A stretch of DNA of 64,000 nt. Source: Akkermansia muciniphila. Lineage in GTDB: Bacteria; Bacillota; Clostridia; Oscillospirales; CAG-272. The position numbers and the translations under genes are program-made. This document shows, in pieces, positions 5,027-58,211 of the stretch (position 1 is its first letter; each line of letters opens with the position of its first letter). The notes beneath the pieces are model-generated. The model was not told the DNA's origin. It saw only the letters and a program-made list of their open reading frames with translations, and searched no databases. The stretch lies in the NCBI GenBank assembly GCA_963611795.1, contig CAVDSZ010000008.1, positions 24,715 through 88,714 on the forward strand, in the 5' to 3' direction.

Positions 5027-5725
5027 TTATTCATGTATCCAGAACGCCCGCCCGATACGCACCATATTGGCGCCCTCGGCGATGGCGATCCGATAGGATT
5101 CGCTCATGCCCATGGAAAGGATCGGCTCTCCGGAAAATCGTCCTTCGGCGGCGAAACGCCGATAGAGTTCCCGCGTCTCGGCAAAGCAGCGAGCCGTGAC
5201 GCTTGTCTCGGCGCCGACGGGACCCATGGTCATCACGCCTCGGAGCCGAATATGCGAATATGCCCGGATTGCATCGGCGAGCGTCTCGGCGTCCTCGGGC
5301 AGAACACCGCCTTTCGCGACTTCGCGCCCGCTGTTGACCTCGAGCAGGCACTCCACCGTCTCCACGCCCGCCGCGGCGGCGCGTTTATCGATTTCGGCGG
5401 CGAGCCGTTCGCTGTCGAGCGACTGGATGAGGTCAGTCTTGCCGACGACCGTTTTCACTTTGTTGGTCTGCAAAGACCCGATGAGATGAAAGCGGGGCGT
5501 GTGACCAAGCGTCGCGGCGAGTGCACGGCGGGCAAGGAAACGGTCGGTGCGATTTTCGCCGATCTCGCGGATCAGCCCCGTCGCCAGCAGTTCCGCGACT
5601 TCTTCATCGGTGCCGCTCTTCGTCACAGCGACGAGCCGCGGCATCGGCTGCCCCGCTCCCGTGGCGAGAGACGCCACTTCGTCAAGGATTCGCTCCGCGT
5701 TACGGCGCACATACGATACATCCAC
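5027..5725 (-). CDS. YggS/YlmE-family pyridoxal-phosphate homeostasis protein
   Basis: LVAVTKSGTDEEV..., HLIGSLQTNKVK and MGMSESY motifs. I prefer the GTG start at 5725, preceded by GGAGG, over the ORF-track ATG at 5797. Confidence 0.85.
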   Translation of the reverse strand: MDVSYVRRNAERILDEVASLATGAGQPMPRLVAVTKSGTDEEVAELLATGLIREIGENRTDRFLARRALAATLGHTPRFHLIGSLQTNKVKTVVGKTDLIQSLDSERLAAEIDKRAAAAGVETVECLLEVNSGREVAKGGVLPEDAETLADAIRAYSHIRLRGVMTMGPVGAETSVTARCFAETRELYRRFAAEGRFSGEPILSMGMSESYRIAIAEGANMVRIGRAFWIHE

Positions 5726-6015
5726 TTGCGAAAATTCCTCCGGCGCGCGTAATTTGATATAAAACAGTATATCATAAGTAAAACCGCTTTTCAACACCTA
5801 TTTTCCCGTCATTTTTCGACAATCCGCCCTCGTCGGTCATGCCGCCGATGAAGGCGGAGGGCACCCCGCCTCTTCTGTACGAACACCGAACTTTCTGCTG
5901 CCACGCGAGTGACGGGATGCGAAAACAGGCAGCAGAATTGACGGCGCGGAGCCGAAGAAACCGGGCGCCTCTCCGTTTTAACGGACTGTTACAGCCACAC
6001 AAAGAGGTCCTTCAC

Positions 6016-7176
6016 ATGAAAGAAATCGACGACGGGCTTTCGATTGCCCACTTTACGGGAGACGACGGTCTCTCCGCCTTTCTGTCGGTGGGTGCCGCCG
6101 GGGAAGCGGCGCTCGGCGCGTATGTCCGCGCGTGGCTCGCAGGGCGTAACGCACCTCCGGGAGAAACGGGCGCCGTGGGTGGCGGTATCGGTTTCGGTTG
6201 CAGTACCCTGACCGCACGGAACGCCGCAGGAGACGTCCTCTTCGGGCGCAATCTCGACTGGGAACGCTCCTCTGCCCTGATTCTCACCGACGCCCCCGCG
6301 TCAGGCGACTACGCGTCCGTCTCCACCGTCAATCTTGAAGTCATGCGCTACTGCGGCATCGGCGATCTTTCCGCCCTGACGGAAGAGGACTTTCTCAAAG
6401 CCGCGCTGTATTTCCCGCTGGACGGCATGAATGAAAAGGGCTTTGCCCTCTCCGTCAATATGATTAAGGACGCGGGCGCTCGGGCACAGGAAACTTCCCC
6501 CGGAAAGACGCCCGTCAACTTCACCGCCGCCATTCGCCTGCTGCTCAACCGCGCCGCCACCGTTGCGGAGGCGGTAGCACTGCTCGGAGACTATAATCTG
6601 TGTGTCCCCGGCGGCGGACAGCTCTTCCACTTCGCCATGGCGGACAGAACGGGGAAAAGCGTCGTCGTCGAGTTCATCGACGGGAAAACGTATGTGACCG
6701 ACACCCCCGCCGTCACGAACTTTTACCTCACGCCGAACGCCGTCAGCGGTACCGACAAGTACGGCATCGGCACCGACCAGTCGGTGCAGCGTTTTGAGAC
6801 CCTGATGGCGAAACTCGCCGCCGCGCCCGATATCTCCAATGCCACCCAAGCCGGCGCCTCACCACACGAAATCGGCGCCGCACCTGTCGCCGCATCTCCG
6901 ATAACAACGGTAAACACGACTGCGCTTCCGGGTGCCGCCGCACTTCCAGACGGCGACGTGATTGCCGAAACCGCAGGCTCCTCCCCGTGTCTCTCCGCCG
7001 ACGACGTGCGCGATGCGCTCGCCTCCGTCGCGAAGTCCAATTTTGATGTCCCCGGCGCCTCCACCGAGTGGAGCGTCGTCTTCAACCTCGCGACCTGCGA
7101 TGCCACCTACTACCGCCGTGAGGACTGGTCCGCCCCCATTCCCTGCCGCGTTCCCGGCCCTGGGCGAGACGCGTAA
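6016..7176 (+). CDS. Linear amide C-N hydrolase, choloylglycine-hydrolase (Ntn, C59-like) family
   Basis: GCSTLTARNAAGDVLFGRNLDWERS places the nucleophile Cys about 17 residues before GRNxD. Start chosen at ATG 6016 (RBS AAAGAGG), which leaves about 61 aa before the Cys. Confidence 0.7.
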   Translation: MKEIDDGLSIAHFTGDDGLSAFLSVGAAGEAALGAYVRAWLAGRNAPPGETGAVGGGIGFGCSTLTARNAAGDVLFGRNLDWERSSALILTDAPASGDYASVSTVNLEVMRYCGIGDLSALTEEDFLKAALYFPLDGMNEKGFALSVNMIKDAGARAQETSPGKTPVNFTAAIRLLLNRAATVAEAVALLGDYNLCVPGGGQLFHFAMADRTGKSVVVEFIDGKTYVTDTPAVTNFYLTPNAVSGTDKYGIGTDQSVQRFETLMAKLAAAPDISNATQAGASPHEIGAAPVAASPITTVNTTALPGAAALPDGDVIAETAGSSPCLSADDVRDALASVAKSNFDVPGASTEWSVVFNLATCDATYYRREDWSAPIPCRVPGPGRDA

Positions 7177-7361
7177 ACGGATCTTTTTGCGGGACCCCCT
7201 ATTTGATCTAAAGGGGGCGCGTTGATCTAAAGAGGGTCTCGCCCCCTCCCCAAAAACTTTGAAACATTTTTGGGCTCTCGCAGACGGTCATCACCCCCGC
7301 GAAATCGAACCCGAAAGAAAAAGCGATTGCGTTCCGCAAGGGGCGCCCCCCGTCGCCCGCA

Positions 7362-7499
7362 CCTTTTAAAGTTCAGGCAACCGACACGGCTTTTCGTTTC
7401 CCTTTGAAAAGCCGTGTCGGTTGCCCATTATATCATTTTGGGGGCTAGTCTCCGCCCTTATCTGCGCCACTGCGCCAGCTATTGCTCAACTTTTGTACC
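7362..7499 (-). repeat. MITE-like element copy A3 (5' module plus hairpin module only)
   Basis: Minus-strand read: GGTACAAAAGTTGAGCAATAGCTGGCGCA..GCGCAGATAAGGGCGGAGACTAGCCCCC..TAATG, then a perfect 20-bp hairpin at 7376-7425 (GGCAACCGACACGGCTTTTC...GAAAAGCCGTGTCGGTTGCC). Matches modules at 57996-58030, 7926-7973, 37079-37122 and 50977-51025. Confidence 0.8.
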
Positions 7500-7669
7500 C
7501 GAGACAAGCGTGAGGAGCCGGAGCGAACTTTTTCATTGATCGGAGAAACCATTCGTTCGCCCTAGCATTTTCGCATAGCGAAAATGCACCATGCCTTAGT
7601 GGTAAGAGAAATCATTACGTTTTGAAGCCCCGTTAAACGTTGCGCTAGCTATTGTTTCACTTGTGTTGA
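7500..7669 (-). repeat. MITE-like element copy A2 (contains double-hairpin core copy 2 at 7522-7586)
   Basis: One end is CGAGACAAGCGTGAGGAG (7500-7517, + strand); the other end is degenerate (CTTGTGTTGA, 7660-7669). Core, read on the minus strand: CATTTTCGCTATGCGAAAATG..GGGCGAACGAATGGTTTCTCCGATCAA..GTTCGCT. Confidence 0.75.
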
Positions 7670-7973
7670 CGAGACAAGAGAGAAGGGAGGGAGAAACCGC
7701 GTTCACACGAACGTCGACGACTAGCGAACCATATAACTTGGTCGGAGAAACCGTTTGTTCGCCCACACATTTCCGCCATGCGGAAATGATTCCGCTTTTT
7801 GAAAGAGGAGTTCTTTACGGTGTACGGTAGAGCGTGCGAACGCGGTTAAAGCCCCCTCGTCTCTTAAAGTAAAGGCAACCGACAAAGCTCCTCATCTATC
7901 CGATGAAAAGTCAATATCGGTTGCCATTAAATTGTTTTGGGGGGCTTGATCTCCGCCCTTATCTCTTGTCTCG
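7670..7973 (-). repeat. MITE-like element copy A1 (304 bp, long form, perfect 12-bp TIRs)
   Basis: CGAGACAAGAGA at 7670-7681 is the exact reverse complement of TCTCTTGTCTCG at 7962-7973. Hairpin 7874-7925. Outer stem 7695-7709 / 7833-7847. Core copy 1 at 7723-7788. No ORF. Confidence 0.85.
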
Positions 7974-9380
7974 CAGCCCTTTGGGGTAATGGTTCTTCGC
8001 AACCCCTCCGACGACCTTGATGCCGCCGACGGGCGCACCCGCCACCGTCACGACCGCCCACCCGTCCGCAAGCGCGCACGGGAATGTCTCCCCCGCGAGA
8101 TACGCGGCAAGCGCCGCGTCCCCCGGCATGAAATCGAGATGCCTTTCAAAATACTCGCCGTAAGCCGAGAAGAAGAAATGTGCCGGGCAAAGCCGCCCTT
8201 TCTCCACCGTACCGGCGTTCACGCCGCGGGCATAGGTAATGCTTTTCGGCGTCGGCACCGCCCCGTCAAGGAGCGAAATGCTCCCTTTGAAAACAACCGG
8301 CTCCGGGAGACGCGCGCCGTCGATACCGGCGGCGGCGAGAAAGGCTTCCCACGCCGCCCGCTCTTCCCGTGAGAGCGGTACCGTATCCGGCTCCGTGCGG
8401 GTCTTGCCCTTGTTTTTGTCCCTGCCTCGATTGGCATTCACATCGTACACGGAAACGGGCGACGCCGCCTCCGCGCGGCGGAACCGACACATGAACTGCC
8501 CCTCCCCCGGGGCGATATGCGGATAGGCGCGGCGGGACAGGCGCCCGACCTCCCGCCCGATGTCGGTGTCCTCGGGGACAATTCCCGAGACGGTCATCGA
8601 CAGCACGGCGTCGGACACTTCTTCCAAAACAAAATCCGGGCGTGCGCGTAAGAACCACAGCACATTCTGCTCGTTTTCCTCAGGCGAGAACGTGCAGGTC
8701 GAATAGACCAGCCGCCCCCCGGGACGCACGGTGTCCGCCCCCGCGAGCAAGATTTCCCGCTGTCTCGCGGCGCACATCGTCACATTCTCGGGGCTCCATT
8801 CCGCGACGGCGATCTCCTCACGGCGGAACATTCCCTCCCCGGAGCAGGGCGCGTCAATCACGACGGCGTCGAAAAAGCCGGGATAGGTCGCGGCAAGCGC
8901 CGGCGCGTCCGTGCGCGTCACGACCGCCGAGCGCACACCCATGCGCTCGAGGTTTCCGGCAAGCGTCACACACCGATTCGGTACATATTCATTGGAGACG
9001 AGCAGACCCCCGTCACCGATGCGGTTCGCAATCTGGGTCGACTTCCCGCCCGGGGCGGCGCAGAGATCCAGCACCCGTTCCCCCGCCCGGATGTCGGCGC
9101 ACAGCACCGGCAGCATCGCGGATGGCTCCTGCATATAATACGCGCCCGCATGGTGGAGCGGGTCACCCCCGACGGGCACCGTGTCCGTGCGGTAAAGTGC
9201 GTCCTTTGCAAAAGGCGTCGGTGTGACCGCCGCCCCGAGCAGCTCCCCGAGCCGTTCCGCCGTCATCTTCCGCCCCGTGTGGAGCGCACGCGCGGGGCGC
9301 TCGTCGTACGCCGCGAGGAACGCGGGATAATCCCCGACGAGCAGGTCGCGCATTCGCGCGAGAAACGCCTCCGGTAACAT
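7959..9380 (-). CDS. NOL1/NOP2/Sun-family rRNA m5C methyltransferase with C-terminal PUA-like extension (RsmF-like)
   Basis: SAM-binding block VLDLCAAPGGKSTQIA, DAPCSGEGMFRR and catalytic YSTCTFSPEENE. The last 5 codons and the stop lie inside repeat A1. Confidence 0.85.
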   Translation of the reverse strand: MLPEAFLARMRDLLVGDYPAFLAAYDERPARALHTGRKMTAERLGELLGAAVTPTPFAKDALYRTDTVPVGGDPLHHAGAYYMQEPSAMLPVLCADIRAGERVLDLCAAPGGKSTQIANRIGDGGLLVSNEYVPNRCVTLAGNLERMGVRSAVVTRTDAPALAATYPGFFDAVVIDAPCSGEGMFRREEIAVAEWSPENVTMCAARQREILLAGADTVRPGGRLVYSTCTFSPEENEQNVLWFLRARPDFVLEEVSDAVLSMTVSGIVPEDTDIGREVGRLSRRAYPHIAPGEGQFMCRFRRAEAASPVSVYDVNANRGRDKNKGKTRTEPDTVPLSREERAAWEAFLAAAGIDGARLPEPVVFKGSISLLDGAVPTPKSITYARGVNAGTVEKGRLCPAHFFFSAYGEYFERHLDFMPGDAALAAYLAGETFPCALADGWAVVTVAGAPVGGIKVVGGVAKNHYPKGLRDKR

Positions 9381-24760: not shown

Positions 24761-25815
24761 CGCCGAAAATTGACCTGTTATCCTTGCTCCCGGAGGAGAT
24801 TGAGACGTATCTTGCCTCGCTCGGCGAACCGCGCTACCGCGCGAAGCAGATTTTCGACTGGTGCCGCCGCGGCACCCCCATATCCGAGATGTCCAACCTC
24901 CCCGCCGCCCTAAGGGCGCGGCTTGACGAGACGTGCGAGTGGCGGCTCCCGACGGTGGAGGTCAAACAGACGAGCGCCATCGACGGCACTGTCAAATACC
25001 TCTTCCGCCTCCTCGACGGCAACTGCGTCGAGAGCGTGCTCATGCGCTACCGCCACGGCACCACCCTGTGCATTTCGAGCGAAGTCGGGTGCCCCATGGG
25101 CTGTCAATTCTGTGCATCCACGATCGGCGGTAAGGTGCGGAACCTGACCCCGTCCGAGATGCTCGGGCAGGTCATCGCCGCGTCGCTCGACGCGGGCGAG
25201 CGCATCGACGGCGTGGTGCTCATGGGCATCGGAGAGCCGCTCGACAACTATGATAACGTGATGAAATTTCTGCGTCTTGTCGGACACCCGGCGGGGCTGA
25301 ACATCGGCTATCGGCACATTTCCCTCTCGACCTGCGGTATCGTGCCGCGCATCTATGACCTTGCGAAGGAGAATCTGCCGATTACCCTCTCCGTCTCGCT
25401 CCATGCCGCGACCGACGAGGCGCGGAGCGCGATTATGCCGGTGAACCGCCGTTATCCCGTCGCGGAGCTGCTCGGTGCCTGCGCCGATTATTTCAAAGCC
25501 ACGGGGCGGCGCATTTCCTTTGAATACACGCTCATCGCCGGGAAGAACGACAGCGCCCGCGATGCGGAAGTGCTGGCGGACGTACTGCTCGCGCACCTCG
25601 GGCGCGTACCGATTCATGTGAATCTGATTCGTGTCAATGAGGTCGCCGAGACGGGATTCCGCCACGGCACCGCCGCCGAGGCGAACGCTTTCGCCGAGGT
25701 GCTGACCCGCCGCGGCATCGTCGCGACGGTGCGCCGCCGTCTCGGCGCGGATATTGACGCCGCCTGCGGGCAGCTCCGCAAGAAACAGGCGGACGGGAAA
25801 GAGGGCGAGTCATGA
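24757..25815 (+). CDS. rlmN: Radical-SAM 23S rRNA/tRNA A2503-C2 methyltransferase RlmN
   Basis: YRAKQIFDW, CPMGCQFCAS cluster, GMGEPLDN-like GIGEPLDNYDNV. Start ATG 24757 overlaps the rsmB stop (ATGA). Confidence 0.95.
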   Translation: MTPKIDLLSLLPEEIETYLASLGEPRYRAKQIFDWCRRGTPISEMSNLPAALRARLDETCEWRLPTVEVKQTSAIDGTVKYLFRLLDGNCVESVLMRYRHGTTLCISSEVGCPMGCQFCASTIGGKVRNLTPSEMLGQVIAASLDAGERIDGVVLMGIGEPLDNYDNVMKFLRLVGHPAGLNIGYRHISLSTCGIVPRIYDLAKENLPITLSVSLHAATDEARSAIMPVNRRYPVAELLGACADYFKATGRRISFEYTLIAGKNDSARDAEVLADVLLAHLGRVPIHVNLIRVNEVAETGFRHGTAAEANAFAEVLTRRGIVATVRRRLGADIDAACGQLRKKQADGKEGES

Positions 25816-26756
25816 CAGAGACGACCGTAAACGGCAAGATTGTCAAGGGACTCGGCGGGCTCTACACGGTGCGTACCGTGTCGGAGGGTATCGTGCGGCT
25901 GTTCTCCTGCCGTGCCAAAGGGGCGTTTCGCCACGAGGACGAAAAGGTGACGGTCGGTGACGAGGTGGTGCTCCGCTATGACGAGAGCGCACCCGAGGAG
26001 ACGGCGATTATTCGCGAGATTCTGCCGCGTAAGAACATTCTGATTCGTCCCCCGCTCACCAATCTGGATATTCTGTTCTCGGTCATTGCGGCGGCGCGTC
26101 CCACGCCGGTGACAGAGACGCTCGATAAGTTGCTCGCCATCGCGGAGCACAACGGCATTGAGCCGGTGCTGATTGTCACGAAGTCGGACTGCGACCCCGC
26201 GGCGGCAGAGCACTACACGACGCTGTACCGACAGGCGGGCTTTACGGTGTTCCCGCTCTCGGGCGCATCGGGTGTCGGGGTGGAGCCCCTGCGCGCGTAT
26301 ATCGCGGAGCACGTCCGTGACGGCAGGTGTGCCGCTTTCGCGGGCGCATCGGGTGTCGGGAAATCGACACTGATGAACTGCCTGTTCCCGGGTCTAGCGC
26401 TCGCGACAAACGCCGTCTCCGCGCGCATCGAACGCGGGCGGCACACGACCCGCCACGTCGAACTGTTCCCGACGACGGACACCCCCGATTGTGGATTCCT
26501 TGCGGATACGCCCGGTTTCTCGATGCTGGACTTCATGCGGTTCGACTTTCTCTCGCTCGACGACCTCTTTGACGCTTTCCGCGACTTCGCGCCCTATCGC
26601 GGCGCGTGCCGCTACCCGGATTGCACCCATACCGGCGAAGGCGCCGCCGAGTGCGCGATTGCCCGCGCCGTCCGCGACGGTGCAATCGCCCCTACCCGCC
26701 ATGAGAGTTACAAATCCCTCTACCGCACCCTCAAAATCAAAAAGAATACCTATTAA
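25812..26756 (+). CDS. rsgA: Ribosome small-subunit-dependent GTPase A
   Basis: Circularly permuted GTPase (TKSD...GASGVGKSTL) with a C-terminal Zn knuckle CRYPDCTHTGEGAAEC. Confidence 0.9.
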   Translation: MTETTVNGKIVKGLGGLYTVRTVSEGIVRLFSCRAKGAFRHEDEKVTVGDEVVLRYDESAPEETAIIREILPRKNILIRPPLTNLDILFSVIAAARPTPVTETLDKLLAIAEHNGIEPVLIVTKSDCDPAAAEHYTTLYRQAGFTVFPLSGASGVGVEPLRAYIAEHVRDGRCAAFAGASGVGKSTLMNCLFPGLALATNAVSARIERGRHTTRHVELFPTTDTPDCGFLADTPGFSMLDFMRFDFLSLDDLFDAFRDFAPYRGACRYPDCTHTGEGAAECAIARAVRDGAIAPTRHESYKSLYRTLKIKKNTY

Positions 26757-26929: not shown

Positions 26930-27089
26930 GCCGAAGAAGTTTCTACATTATCACGACGTCACGTTGTAGGGGCGACCAATGGTCGCCCGCAAGCCGAAAA
27001 AGTTTCAACAATATCGCGGACGTCACATTTCGGATGCGCCCTCGACCGTCCGCGAACAAAAGACAAAATGGTTCGGGCAGATAACCCCC
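26930..27089 (+). repeat. Degenerate repeat region (63-bp-period direct repeat plus hairpins related to the MITE-like family)
   Basis: GCCGAAGAAGTTTCTACATTATCACGACGTCACGTT (26930-26965) versus GCCGAAAAAGTTTCAACAATATCGCGGACGTCACATT (26993-27029). GCGAAC..GTTCG stem followed by CAGATAACCCCC at 27052-27089. Confidence 0.45.
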
Positions 27090-27119: not shown

Positions 27120-27148
27120 TTGACAAGCGTCGGGGTGGGTGCTATAAT
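27120..27148 (+). promoter_or_regulatory. Sigma-A promoter of rplJ-rplL
   Basis: TTGACA (27120-27125), 17-nt spacer ending in TGC, TATAAT (27143-27148). Confidence 0.75.
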
Positions 27149-27296
27149 ATCGTCGTTATCCTGAGACAGCAGGTTCACGGTAAAAGCTTTGCTTTCCTGC
27201 CGAGGTGAGACAGACAGTACATTTTTTATGTGTTTTTTGTCCTTTCTCGGCTTGCCGTGAAAGGATTATTTTTTTATCACAAACGGAGGAAATGAA
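27149..27296 (+). ncRNA. Ribosomal protein L10 (rplJ) autoregulatory leader, putative
   Basis: About 148-nt structured 5' UTR between a strong promoter and rplJ, ending in a T-run (ACATTTTTTATG). Called from position and known Firmicute L10-leader biology, not from a model match. Confidence 0.5.
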
Positions 27297-36726: not shown

Positions 36727-37014
36727 TCAAGGAAAAGTATTTTTTCGTGCACTGAGTGAAATATGTTTACTTACGGGAGACGTGTCGGTGCATTTGGTCA
36801 CACCCGCCAGATAATCAATCGATACTGCATACAGTGCCGCCAATTCGATAAATTGATGCATCAGCAATTCCTGTTTGCCTGTTTCATACCGCACATATTG
36901 CTGCCGTAAAATCCCAAAATGCTCCGCGACCTGTGTCTGTGTCAGGTCGGCATCTTCGCGCAGATCCCGTAATCTTTTGTAGAGATTGTCTATCGCGACA
37001 TTTCGTCCCTGACA
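36727..37014 (-). pseudogene. XRE-family HTH gene lacking a usable start codon (5'-truncated)
   Basis: Minus-strand frame reads ..NLYKRLRDLREDADLTQTQVAEHFGILRQQYVRYETGKQELLMHQFIELAALYAVSIDYLAGV..*. There is no in-frame ATG, GTG or TTG before the HTH. The frame runs directly into repeat 37026-37122. Confidence 0.5.
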
Positions 37015-37025
37015 TTTTAAAAAAT

Positions 37026-37122
37026 AAAGGCAACCGACTCTGCTTTCTCTTTCGAGTTGTATAGCAAAATCGGTTGCCCATTACTTTATTTCGGGGGCGT
37101 GATCTCCCCCTTATCTCTTGTC
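37026..37122 (-). repeat. MITE-like family, hairpin/terminator module only (groEL 3' copy)
   Basis: Minus strand directly after the groEL TAA: GACAAGAGATAAGGGGGAGATCACGCCCCCGAAATAAAGTAATG, then hairpin 37029-37078 (GGCAACCGA..TCGGTTGCC), then TTTATTTTTT. About 90% identical to 50927-51025. Confidence 0.85.
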
Positions 37123-38754
<1,632 letters not shown>

Positions 38755-50394: not shown

Positions 50395-50430
50395 AAGAGG
50401 AGCTGATTTTCTCGGCTCCTCTTCGTATTT
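50395..50430 (+). terminator. Rho-independent terminator after XRE gene
   Basis: Stem AAGAGGAGCTG / CGGCTCCTCTT, then CGTATTT. Confidence 0.7.
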
Positions 50431-50477
50431 GTCATATACCGTTGATTCCCCCGGCAACCGCTTGAAAGCAACGAAAA

Positions 50478-50591
50478 ACCGCTCTGCCGAGATTGATAAA
50501 AAAGGGGGCAACTACTTCGTGCCCCCATATATTTTTTACCCGCGCTCTTCGCGCCCCGTGCGCCCGCTAATGCCTGATCTGTGTACCCGAG
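50478..50591 (-). repeat. 114-bp repeat unit, copy 1 (hairpin GGGGGCA..TGCCCCC)
   Basis: About 85% identical to 50707-50822 by eye. Contains GGGGGCAACTACTTCGTGCCCCC, TATATTTTTTACCC and CGCCCGCTAATGCCTGA. Confidence 0.8.
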
Positions 50592-50706
50592 GTGAGCAGA
50601 GGGTGATGAAGAAACCGCGAGAGCGTTCTCGTCGCCGTACTCCGTACGACAGAGAGCGGTATCGCGGTTAGCGGGTAAACGCGTCTCCCTTGAATAGTAA
50701 CGGCAA

Positions 50707-50822
50707 ACCGTTCTGCCAAGAATAAGGAAAACAGGGGGGCAACTGCTTCGTGCCCCCGTATATTTTTTACCCATGTTCTTCGCGCCCCGTACGCCCGCTA
50801 ATGCCTGACCTGTGTGCCCGAG
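50707..50822 (-). repeat. 116-bp repeat unit, copy 2
   Basis: Direct repeat of 50478-50591 at a 229-bp period. Abuts the TIR of element 50819-51025. Confidence 0.8.
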
Positions 50823-51025
50823 ACAAGAGAGAAGGGAGGGAGAAACCGCGTTCACACAAACGTCGACGCACTTTGTGCGGTAGAGCGTGCGAACGCGGTT
50901 AAAGCCCCCGTTCTTCTTAAAGTATAGGCAACCGACTCTGCTTTCTAATTCGAGTTGTTCAGCAAAATCGGTTGCCCATTACTTTATTTCGGGGGCTTGG
51001 TCTCCGCCCTTATCTCTTTGTCTCG
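50819..51025 (-). repeat. MITE-like element, short form (207 bp) downstream of and overlapping the tyrS stop
   Basis: CGAGACAAGAGA (50819-50830) and TCTCTTTGTCTCG (51013-51025) form the TIRs. Outer stem AACCGCGTTCACAC/GTGCGAACGCGGTT encloses only a short GCAC-AAA-GTGC hairpin. Hairpin 50927-50976. Confidence 0.85.
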
Positions 51026-57389: not shown

Positions 57390-57683
57390 ATGAAGGATTT
57401 TGTCAAGAAGTACCGCTTCATTCTGATGATTGTACTGTTTGCACAGGCGGTCACGCTGTTTTTTCTGTTCCTGTCGCAGGTAGGCAGACGGCGCAGTCTG
57501 GCGGACGCATTCCTTGCCCTGTCGGCGAGCGACACCATGGTGACGTTCCTTCTGTACCTCGGCTATCTCGGGGAGAAACGGGAGAAAAAGGCGCGCACGG
57601 AGACGCGCGAGCAGATGCGGGAGGATCCGGACGGATTCGAGATTCCGCTCGATGATACGGCGAGAGCCCGTGACTTCCGATAA
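57390..57683 (+). CDS. Small membrane protein, unknown function (97 aa)
   Basis: Two predicted TM helices, then a charged tail. ATG preceded by GGGAGAG. Followed directly by a repeat element. Confidence 0.5.
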   Translation: MKDFVKKYRFILMIVLFAQAVTLFFLFLSQVGRRRSLADAFLALSASDTMVTFLLYLGYLGEKREKKARTETREQMREDPDGFEIPLDDTARARDFR

Positions 57684-57995
57684 CGAGACAAGTGTGAGAA
57701 GCGCAGAACAAGCGCCCTGAATAAGGGCAAATAAAGGGCAACCGATATTGACTGTTCTTTGTACGAAAGAAAGCCGTGTCGGTTGCCTATTCTTTAAGAA
57801 CCGACGGGCGCTTTAGTCCCGAAAACGGTCTCTGCCGTACAACGTAAAGCAACCCTCATTCAAAAAGCGGGTGCATTTCCGCTATGCGGAAATGTGTGAG
57901 CGAACAAACGGTTTCCCCGAACAAATCATAATGTTCGCTGGTATGTGCGACGAGCCCCGTTTTCGGGACTTCTGCATCTTCTCACGCTTGTCTCA
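57684..57995 (+). repeat. MITE-like element, full-length long form (312 bp), + orientation
   Basis: Ends CGAGACAAGTGTGAGAA (57684-57700) and TTCTCACGCTTGTCTCA (57979-57995) match as inverted repeats at 15/17. Hairpin 57737-57787. Outer stem 57815-57828 / 57957-57970. Core copy 3 at 57874-57939. Confidence 0.85.
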
Positions 57996-58134
57996 GGGTA
58001 CAAAAGTTGAGCAATAGCTGGCGCACAGATATAAAAAGTAAAGGTATTTTCGCGTCAGCGAAAATACATCAGGCAAACAAACGGTGTCTCAGACCAAAGA
58101 AGAACGTTTGCCGTGGCTGGCGCAGATAAGGGCG
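57996..58134 (+). repeat. MITE-like element, partial second copy (contains core copy 4 at 58045-58112)
   Basis: GGTACAAAAGTTGAGCAATAGCTGGCGCA (matches 7468-7499 reverse complement), then core 4, then GCTGGCGCAGATAAGGGCGG. Similarity ends after that. Confidence 0.75.
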
Positions 58135-58211
58135 GCGCGTCTTGCGGCGGTGTGGTATTTGTTCACATTTTTGTGCTATACTGGTAGTAATAAGGTAAAG
58201 GAGACCCGACC

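Follow-up and report, generated by a model that had tools for sequence, protein, structure and literature searches.

A modular repeat family folding into a three-way junction and anchored on the stop codons of chromosomal genes in a narrow gut lineage

Behind the gene for an RsmF-like methyltransferase, in the 64-kb stretch of contig CAVDSZ010000008.1 analysed here (64,000 nucleotides, called the window), the intergenic region 7340-7973 is filled with repeated sequence that carries inverted termini. The initial annotation saw in it three head-to-tail elements bounded by terminal inverted repeats (TIRs) and resembling MITEs (miniature inverted-repeat transposable elements). The locus therefore raises the question whether these repeats are mobile elements that settled behind genes or belong to the ends of the genes they follow. 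On balance we favour the view that they form a lineage-specific, modular family of structured repeats which, comparable to BOX, SPRITE and repetitive extragenic palindrome (REP) sequences, would serve as a transcribed 3'-end module of many chromosomal genes, would be homogenised by recombination, and is not a classical MITE.

A sensitive self-comparison combined with an nhmmer profile placed the family at exactly four loci of the window. The termini described in the initial annotation are real: 7670-7681 (CGAGACAAGAGA) and 7962-7973 are exact reverse complements of each other, with mismatches the inverted repeat reaches about 24 nt (7670-7694/7950-7973) and closes a 304-nt unit, and the same termini bound 50819-51025 (207 nt; 50819-50843/51001-51025) and 57684-57996 (313 nt; 57684-57708/57970-57994). 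No plausible open reading frame (ORF) lies between them. The terminal motif CGAGACAAG occurs six times in the window against 0.57 expected, and a longer terminus pattern five times against 0.42 expected. The initial annotation was thus right about a dispersed family that lacks ORFs, has inverted termini, comes in modular forms of greater and smaller length and builds arrays arranged head to tail. Of the three units proposed behind the RsmF-like gene, only 7670-7973 has both termini; 7500-7669 and 7340-7499 are partial modules. Minus-strand copies do follow the RsmF-like gene, groEL and tyrS, and a plus-strand copy follows a 97-aa ORF (57390-57683). The groEL copy, for which no coordinates had been given, is a short form at 37004-37125. 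A second plus-strand copy had been placed behind rsgA (25812-26756); none was found there by nhmmer --max, and the hairpin that follows rsgA is unrelated. The gene upstream of the 97-aa ORF encodes a peptide-chain release factor and is not rsgA.

All parts of a unit are named here in the sense of the upstream gene. A complete unit begins with a purine-rich leader, CGAGACAAG-AGATAAGGGCGGAGA in subtype A and CGAGACAAG-TGTGAGAAGCGCAGA in subtype D. The P2 arm follows, in which GCCCCC...GGGGGC (or GCGCCC...GGGCGC) surrounds a hairpin of about 50 nt, H, whose base is GGCAACCGA/TCGGTTGCC and whose 3' side is rich in U, and then the P3 arm, a 14-bp helix with a small apical hairpin. The leader pairs with a pyrimidine-rich strand, and the resulting helix P1 closes a three-way junction with 0-2 unpaired nucleotides at each joint. 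The "TIRs" are this closing helix. In long forms a B module of about 100 nt is placed in the apical loop of P3; it is made of two hairpins, one being GCATTTCCGC/GCGGAAATGC and the other bearing the conserved loop AACAAACGGTTTCTCCGA. The 3' terminus of every unit leads into a 29-nt tail, GGTACACAAGTTGAGCAATAGCTGGCGCA, which is conserved, and past this tail optional extras may stand: 69-nt units made of a P1-3'-like strand, tail and linker (0-3 copies per array), more B modules and more H hairpins. Folded as RNA and compared with shuffled sequence, the tyrS unit reached -110.7 kcal/mol (z = -12.3), unit 1 behind rsmF -135.3 kcal/mol (z = -8.8) and the unit behind the 97-aa ORF -141.9 kcal/mol (z = -10.6). 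The features of the four loci are as follows.

7340-7973, minus strand: locus 1, behind the RsmF-like methyltransferase gene
7670-7973, minus strand: unit 1 of locus 1, 304 nt, long-form three-way junction
7950-7973: unit 1, P1 5' strand, holding the last four codons of the RsmF-like gene and TAA 7959-7961
7940-7947 / 7849-7856: unit 1, base of P2
7874-7925: unit 1, H hairpin
7834-7847 / 7695-7708: unit 1, P3, with a B module (about 7716-7826) within its apical loop
7670-7694: unit 1, P1 3' strand
7500-7669, minus strand: unit 2, partial, with 29-nt tail (7641-7669), linker, B module and a lone P1-3'-like strand (7500-7524)
about 7522-7600: unit 2, B module, hairpin GCATTTTCGC..GCGAAAATGC and loop AACGAATGGTTTCTCCGA
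7340-7499, minus strand: unit 3, partial, with tail, partial P1-5' sequence and a GGCAACCGA H hairpin, no 3' partner
7471-7499: unit 3, tail, 30/30 identical to 57996-58025
7449-7470: unit 3, partial P1-5' sequence GCGCAGATAAGGGCGGAGA
7376-7425: unit 3, H hairpin
7341-7358: unit 3, degenerate GC-rich palindrome at the distal end
37004-37125, minus strand: locus 2, short form behind groEL, leader, H and T-run without P3 and without P1 3' strand
37102-37125: groEL form, P1-5' leader, starting with the TAA of groEL
37029-37078 and 37019-37028: groEL form, H hairpin and T-run
50430-51025, minus strand: locus 3, behind tyrS
50819-51025, minus strand: tyrS unit, 207-nt short three-way junction
51001-51025: tyrS unit, P1 5' strand, with the tyrS stop TAA (51010-51012) inside P1
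50927-50976, 50844-50900 and 50819-50843: tyrS unit, H hairpin, P3 and P1 3' strand
50430-50818, minus strand: rest of the tyrS array, where a tail-like segment leads into about 1.6 copies of a 231-nt direct repeat
57684-58135, plus strand: locus 4, behind the 97-aa ORF 57390-57683, which itself lies behind a release-factor gene
57684-57996, plus strand: unit of the 97-aa ORF, 313 nt, long form, D subtype, abutted by the TAA of the ORF (57681-57683)
57684-57708, 57737-57787 and 57970-57994: the same unit, P1 5' strand, H hairpin and P1 3' strand
within the same unit: P3 of wholly different yet complementary sequence, AGTCCCGAAAACGG / CCGTTTTCGGGACT, with a B module in its loop
57997-58135, plus strand: continuation of the array, tail (57997-58025) and a second B module (about 58038-58122)
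about 58112-58135: the same continuation, partial P1-5'-like sequence GCGCAGATAAGGGCGG, ahead of the promoter region of the next gene

The groEL short form has the anatomy of an intrinsic terminator, TCGGTTGCC followed by TTTATTTTTT. The copies of the direct repeat downstream of the tyrS unit (50498-50822) are 89% identical, and each copy comprises a GGGGGCA..TGCCCCC hairpin with T-run, a P3-like helix, a P1-3'-like strand and a tail. A separate strong terminator is located at 50395-50423.

We aligned 17 full units from four genomes (alignment A3) and counted 63 pairs. RNAalifold recovered the three-way junction from this alignment. Paired cells amounted to 97.2%, compared with 43-48% when the 3' partners were slid by 1-3 columns. 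Both partners changed in 28 of the 63 pairs, and none of 500 shuffles matched the observed values. Covarying pairs were found in P3 (12/14), P1 (10/20) and the base of P2 (4/7). In P3 the whole helix is exchanged, with alternatives including AACCGCGTTCGCAC, AGTCCCGAAAACGG and ACCCCCGTGCACGT. The outermost pairs of P1 compensate as well (GAGA/TCTC, AAGG/CCTT, AACG/CGTT, GGGG/CCCC, GACG/CGTC), and where the first triplet CGA becomes the stop codon TAA, its partner TCG becomes TTA. The composition of the two P1 strands is asymmetric in both subtypes, the 5' strand being purine-rich and the 3' strand C/U-rich and G-poor (A3 columns 1-25 and 300-323, e.g. 7950-7973 and 7670-7694).

The helices also distinguish between the two DNA strands. 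In the sense of the gene, G-U (G-T) pairs outnumber A-C mismatches in the A3 helices by 50 to 8 (34 to 8 once a single invariant U-G pair is set aside). For 36 unique H hairpins the sense strand gave 96 G-U pairs and seven A-C mismatches. Their mean minimum free energy was -27.6 kcal/mol in sense versus -22.7 kcal/mol in antisense, the sense strand being more stable in 29 of 36. The 9 nt past H contain on average 5.6 T in sense versus 3.9 in antisense, and 50 of 58 H copies are followed in sense by at least five T within the next 9 nt, which is the anatomy of an intrinsic terminator. A generic terminator scanner misses these hairpins owing to its loop limit of 8 nt and is hence uninformative here. 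The G-U excess and the better folding in sense therefore indicate that selection acts on the single strand in gene sense, most simply the transcript. A MITE reading predicts neither covariation of internal arms nor a bias toward the sense strand.

The position of the repeats relative to genes is equally uniform. Copies were found behind 15 distinct genes in more than 35 occurrences, and every time the element lies in the sense of the gene, so that the co-orientation noticed in the initial annotation extends to 15/15 genes. According to Pfam assignments, the genes are rsmF, groEL, tyrS, the 97-aa ORF, a CotF-like gene, IMPDH, a gene for a 1040-aa protein, a class II aminoacyl-tRNA synthetase, a BspA-type LRR protein, an ABC ATPase, RNase J, an HTH protein, prephenate dehydratase, PFOR and a YitT-family protein. 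The first base of P1 is located 0-5 nt past the stop codon or on it; otherwise the ORF enters the element and stops at +12/13, +34, +36 or +38, with all three frames in use. The C-terminus of RsmF is accordingly encoded by the repeat (7959-7973), A-type genomes having RDKR and D-type genomes RDKCEKRRSSAQ(SK), each followed by the stop. Other proteins gain repeat-encoded tails of 11-12 residues (...SVRSAEQAP or ...EIRAENKPPK before the stop), depending on the frame of entry. The gene downstream of the element is convergent at some loci and co-directional at others. GC skew is negative in 15 of 16 4-kb bins along the window (GC content 56-65%), so the plus strand is the lagging strand throughout and neither replication origin nor terminus lies inside. 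Since copies nevertheless occur on both strands, orientation follows the gene and not the replication strand, as far as four loci can tell.

We determined the distribution of the family by an exact-pattern scan of 185,579 species genomes. Real copies were present only in three metagenome-assembled genomes (MAGs) of "uncultured Eubacteriales" from the Hadza gut and in MAG W3P5.027 (SFZB01), all remaining matches being chance; counted together, the carriers are four or five uncultured Eubacteriales genomes that are close relatives. Nucleotide identity to the window is about 94% for SFZB01 and about 80% for CAKRYT01 and CAKRNO01. A metagenome scan added 13 contigs of the 93-95% group. Collections of plasmid, phage and viral contigs gave no match to the family, and a literature search by sequence motif returned irrelevant matches only and no paper with the motifs. 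The family is undescribed, and its range is limited to one narrow gut lineage that is uncultured. Among public contigs a single one has the exact RsmF protein, and it stops 63 nt past the gene, so assemblies break at the repeat.

Comparison of these genomes separates the stability of the loci from the turnover of their contents. The window, CAKRYT01 and CAKRNO01 have the rsmF junction at an identical nucleotide position, although their units belong to subtypes A, A and D, respectively. Over about 25 kb of synteny with SFZB01, CAKRYT01 and CAKRNO01 the same loci are occupied and none is additional. RsmF homologues with at least 77% identity to the protein of the window end in element-encoded ...KGLRDKR or ...KGLRDKCEKRRSSAQ before the stop. 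A relative at 70% identity has leader, H and T-run only. Relatives at 68% and 61% have native ends (...KGLRLRT and ...RLRQ before the stop) and ordinary terminators, with no family member in 14-17 kb. Presence/absence polymorphism, whose lack the initial annotation had taken to speak against a mobile element, was not seen for whole loci and was seen for internal modules, which vary between strains. At groEL a short A-type form in the window stands against a full D-type unit with B module in SFZB01 (L028). At tyrS, relatives of about 94% identity share the leader and then carry different modules. The rsmF site of the window has a B module in P3 and one 69-nt unit, the piece parting units 1 and 2, both of which are absent from contig L083. 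Genomes of about 94% identity arrange the modules behind the 97-aa ORF in different orders. In L081 (8400-8950, compared with window 5358-7463) the stop codon of RNase J is joined through a leader and H module like that of unit 3 to a gene of the choloylglycine-hydrolase family, which adjoins rsmF in the window; this arrangement is a genome rearrangement with its breakpoint in the repeat arrays. Copies group by subtype and not by genome or locus, and two different loci of CAKRYT01 are 98% identical. It follows that sequence moves between loci while the loci stay put.

At the orthologous 3' position of rsmF, the 61% relative (L079:7565-7660) carries a plain terminator, GGCAACC-CCGC-GGTTGCC-TTTTCTTTTT. 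Its stem has the sequence of the H-hairpin base, and the last codons of the gene contain TTAAGACAA, which matches the leader variant of groEL. The terminator could be a proto-element, a relic or a coincidence. We considered rsmF as the birthplace of the family, which TTAAGACAA and the terminator make suggestive, and set it aside because the reading frames differ.

A second repeat family was noticed in the same genomes, a GTAG-tagged palindrome, (T)GTAGGGGCGACC-N4-GGTCGCCC, with 33 copies in related loci. It occurs at 26964-26992 of the window and in L012, L017, L025, L033, L046, L052, L065 and L066, with six copies in tandem at about 67-nt spacing in L033. It is often located at the distal end of the repeat arrays, and a degenerate copy is found at 7341-7358. 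Since this is a classical GTAG-tagged REP family, its presence suggests that a RAYT-type system may exist in the family genomes.

How do these observations bear on a mobile origin? In a classical MITE, a deletion derivative of an insertion sequence (IS) would be moved in trans by a transposase recognising the inverted termini, and its position at gene ends would reflect tolerated insertion. Such a derivative is expected to look much as these units do at first sight, with imperfect inverted termini of about 24 nt, a size below 350 nt, no ORF and many copies in long and short forms, and the 98% identity of two loci within one genome and the breaking of assemblies at the repeats would fit as well. 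It fails on target-site duplication, presence/absence of whole elements and random orientation, and within the sequence covered no parent IS appeared. No direct repeat flanks any of the 17 full copies, which border at the 5' side on a gene end that is unique and at the 3' side, every time, on the conserved tail GGTACACAAGTT...; neither whole-element presence/absence nor empty sites were found in the syntenic 25 kb of the three relatives; no terminus pair more than 420 nt apart, as a longer element would have, was detected in 352 kb from family genomes; and plasmids, phages and viral contigs are unmatched. Sense orientation with stop-codon anchoring in 15/15 genes, a junction shared by species of about 80% identity, internal helices that covary as strongly as the termini and the G-U bias of the sense strand likewise speak against it, and we regard the MITE reading as quite unlikely. 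A second rival is a REPIN-like selfish element, in which a RAYT, an IS200/IS605-type Y1 enzyme or similar would recognise the invariant GGCAACCGA hairpin and move single-stranded DNA, so that the structure would be conserved for the mobilising enzyme and not for an RNA function. REPINs also show hairpins with compensatory change, and the base of H is nearly invariant whereas the other helices covary. The mechanism predicts no target-site duplication, copying between loci is recent, and the GTAG-tagged family means that a RAYT-type system may be present. However, no conserved oligonucleotide of the kind targeted by IS200/IS605 elements precedes the junction, and with orientation independent of GC skew we rejected targeting of that type. 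The H hairpin (about 50 nt, base GGCAACCGA) bears neither a GTAG nor a CGTC tag, no such enzyme gene adjoins any copy within the loci, a Pfam scan of 28 distinct ORF products, taken from the 64-kb window and from loci of about 8 kb, returned no transposase, orientation follows the gene and not the replication strand (at only four loci), and both stop-codon anchoring and positional conservation across species are left unexplained. This origin, too, appears unlikely to us.

A further possibility is an RNA device coupled to the termination of translation. The terminating ribosome would unwind the 5' strand of P1, free the C/U-rich 3' strand and switch the fold, and the switch would tie transcription termination, Rho loading or mRNA decay to the translation of the message. 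P1 lies 0-5 nt from the stop codon or contains it in 15/15 genes, the stop codon is base-paired with a partner that covaries (CGA/TCG to TAA/TTA), the purine/pyrimidine asymmetry of P1 is kept in both subtypes and folding is biased to the sense strand. There is also a precedent in REPs, which are reported to stall ribosomes when located near stop codons (PMC12306157). Against this, no alternative pairing has support from covariation: two candidates (tail with P1 3' strand, leader with P2 5' strand) were rejected as compensation was inconsistent on A3, judged by eye. Moreover, hybrids without a P1 partner survive. We see in this device a minor, though not negligible, possibility. In its boldest form the three-way junction would be a novel class of cis-acting RNA sensing the end of translation, one 3'-end switch for dozens of core genes that decides between termination of the transcript, Rho loading and protection from decay, an idea to which we give an equally small chance. 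Still more exotic would be a family that spreads through a process sensing stop codons itself, which we considered because no DNA target motif explains the anchoring.

In A-type copies the 5' strand of P1 looks like an extended Shine-Dalgarno sequence (AAGGGGGAGAUCAC behind groEL) and its 3' strand like the 3' tail of 16S rRNA, a likeness not shown by D-type copies. Mimicry of a Shine-Dalgarno sequence by the leader was rejected; A-type leaders have GGAG, as in an extended Shine-Dalgarno sequence, and D-type leaders do not. The tail together with CAGATATAAA at 57997-58045 (also in L083) resembles a sigma-70 promoter (TTGAGC, 17 nt, TATAAA) directed toward the downstream B module; this site is absent from the output of a consensus scanner. 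At some loci the B module might thus be expressed as a small RNA of its own.

The structured 3'-end module that we favour could work as follows. Its basic module, built like an intrinsic terminator, is the purine-rich leader starting on the stop codon, the hairpin of about 50 nt with base GGCAACCGA/TCGGTTGCC and the U-rich tract. Full units add P3 and the pyrimidine-rich strand pairing with the leader, so that the three-way junction abuts the coding sequence. B modules, 69-nt P1-3'+tail units and hairpins are optional additions in the P3 loop or downstream. Transcribed together with the upstream gene, the element would act in sense RNA as a terminator and as a protective 3'-end cap that leaves no single-stranded gap past the stop codon. 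The terminating ribosome would have to melt P1, and translation may be tuned thereby, as for REPs at most 15 nt from the stop. Ectopic recombination or gene conversion between loci, and not ongoing cut-and-paste transposition, would homogenise and reshuffle the copies.

Several observations weigh against this model. Single-stranded DNA in the sense orientation would give an equal G-T bias. A large part of the covariation tells subfamily A from subfamily D, so there were fewer independent events than one would read from the cell counts. Nearly perfect helices of 14-23 bp are commoner in DNA palindromes than in most functional RNAs. Close strains (L052, L038/L080) retain hybrid arrays whose leader lacks a good 3' partner, and P1 is therefore not indispensable. 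The presence of the leader on the stop codons of 15 unrelated genes is not accounted for by recombination alone. Finally, the 9-bp base of H hardly varies while the other helices covary, which suggests that its sequence is recognised by a protein, possibly a mobilising enzyme; this invariance comes in part from fetching loci by exact pattern, but it holds for 5/5 copies of the window. The near-invariant H stem and the conserved B loop point to a sequence-specific partner, and for this reason an origin through REPIN-like mobilisation by an enzyme has to be kept in mind.

We also compared the family with known structured RNAs. A scan of the whole window against Rfam 15 at gathering thresholds returned only two tRNAs and a ribosomal protein L10 leader, leaving the repeat family unmatched, and a scan of 7150-8000 at E <= 10 gave matches at chance level only (12-17 bits). 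The L10 leader (RF00557, 51.7 bits, 27142-27279) lies upstream of the rplJ region and is the only cis-regulatory RNA detected by Rfam in the window. Hammerhead and other ribozymes, retron non-coding RNA, T-box, SECIS and attC were rejected on anatomy, because the junction has no conserved core and only 0-2 unpaired nucleotides, because neither a reverse transcriptase nor an integrase is nearby, and because in-frame stops follow the stop codon.

Among interspersed repeats, the family is set apart from BOX, SPRITE, ERIC and Correia elements by their published descriptions (PMC3049150) and their taxa, not by a direct comparison of consensus sequences. BOX elements of Streptococcus pneumoniae and S. 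suis (boxA-boxB(n)-boxC) are similar in many respects: they occur in Firmicutes, are ORF-less and modular, their end modules pair around a self-contained middle module that is absent or repeated, a tight fold is predicted when they are co-transcribed, and they cluster with other repeats (PMC3049150). The family has the same design, as the P1 strands pair and the P3 loop holds a B module in the window and none in L083. In contrast to BOX, it has a three-way-junction core with two internal arms and a sequence that differs by description, is strictly in sense, anchored on the stop codon and kept in position between species; BOX ends also resemble the termini of ISSpn2, while no such IS was seen with this family. 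SPRITE elements consist of a long duplex followed by a U-rich tract and are enriched at gene 3' ends, which matches the short form (PMC3049150); both BOX and SPRITE are modular or terminator-like and co-transcribed (PMC3049150). Here, however, the terminator-like hairpin forms part of a larger junction that covaries, and the conserved leader in front of it overlaps the stop codon. REPs located within 15 nt of a stop codon are reported to stall ribosomes (PMC12306157), and REP termini supply stop codons (PMC3733652). REP/BIME sequences of enterobacteria, with their GTAG- and CGTC-tagged families, are transcribed, as the family probably is; they are also extragenic, lie 3' of genes between convergent or co-directional ORFs and form mosaic arrays differing between strains, as the family does, so that the likeness to BIME-type mosaics drawn in the initial annotation was apt. 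Many REPs lie at most 15-20 nt from a stop codon or supply it, and they can stall terminating ribosomes. They differ in being palindromes of 20-40 nt with a GTAG or CGTC tag and a cognate RAYT, whereas the units described here are 120-310 nt long, untagged and folded into a three-way junction, and are anchored on the stop in every case observed rather than in a fraction. ERIC/IRU and Correia (CREE) elements are likewise imperfect palindromes, of 100-150 nt, co-transcribed with genes. They have long forms arising by insertions at fixed internal sites and effects on mRNA processing (RNase E, RNase III). Unlike the family, Correia elements cause duplication of a TA target and are found in either orientation, and ERIC elements are also found in either orientation and only in Enterobacterales and Vibrio. 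Integron attC sites are imperfect inverted repeats conserved in structure and variable in sequence, located directly 3' of an ORF, often overlapping its stop and in one orientation, with apical structures that are sometimes branched. The attC core RYYYAAC ... GTTRRRY is not present in the family, whose termini are CGAGACAAG ... CTTGTCTCG, and its hosts are dispersed core genes (groEL, tyrS, rsmF, PFOR) and not a cassette array beside an integrase.

In practical terms, the repeats break short-read assemblies of these common gut organisms and add element-encoded C-terminal residues to annotated proteins, such as ...RDKR or ...RDKCEKRRSSAQ in RsmF. Small interspersed repeats are usually dismissed as selfish DNA. 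Here the combination of a 200-300-nt fold, covariation in every helix, a folding bias toward the sense strand, strict sense orientation, anchoring on stop codons and positional conservation argues for work at the RNA level. If our reading is true, the family would offer a natural system to study how termination, ribosome release and mRNA decay respond to structure at the stop codon, a question raised by the stalling at REPs, and how modules are copied between the ends of genes.

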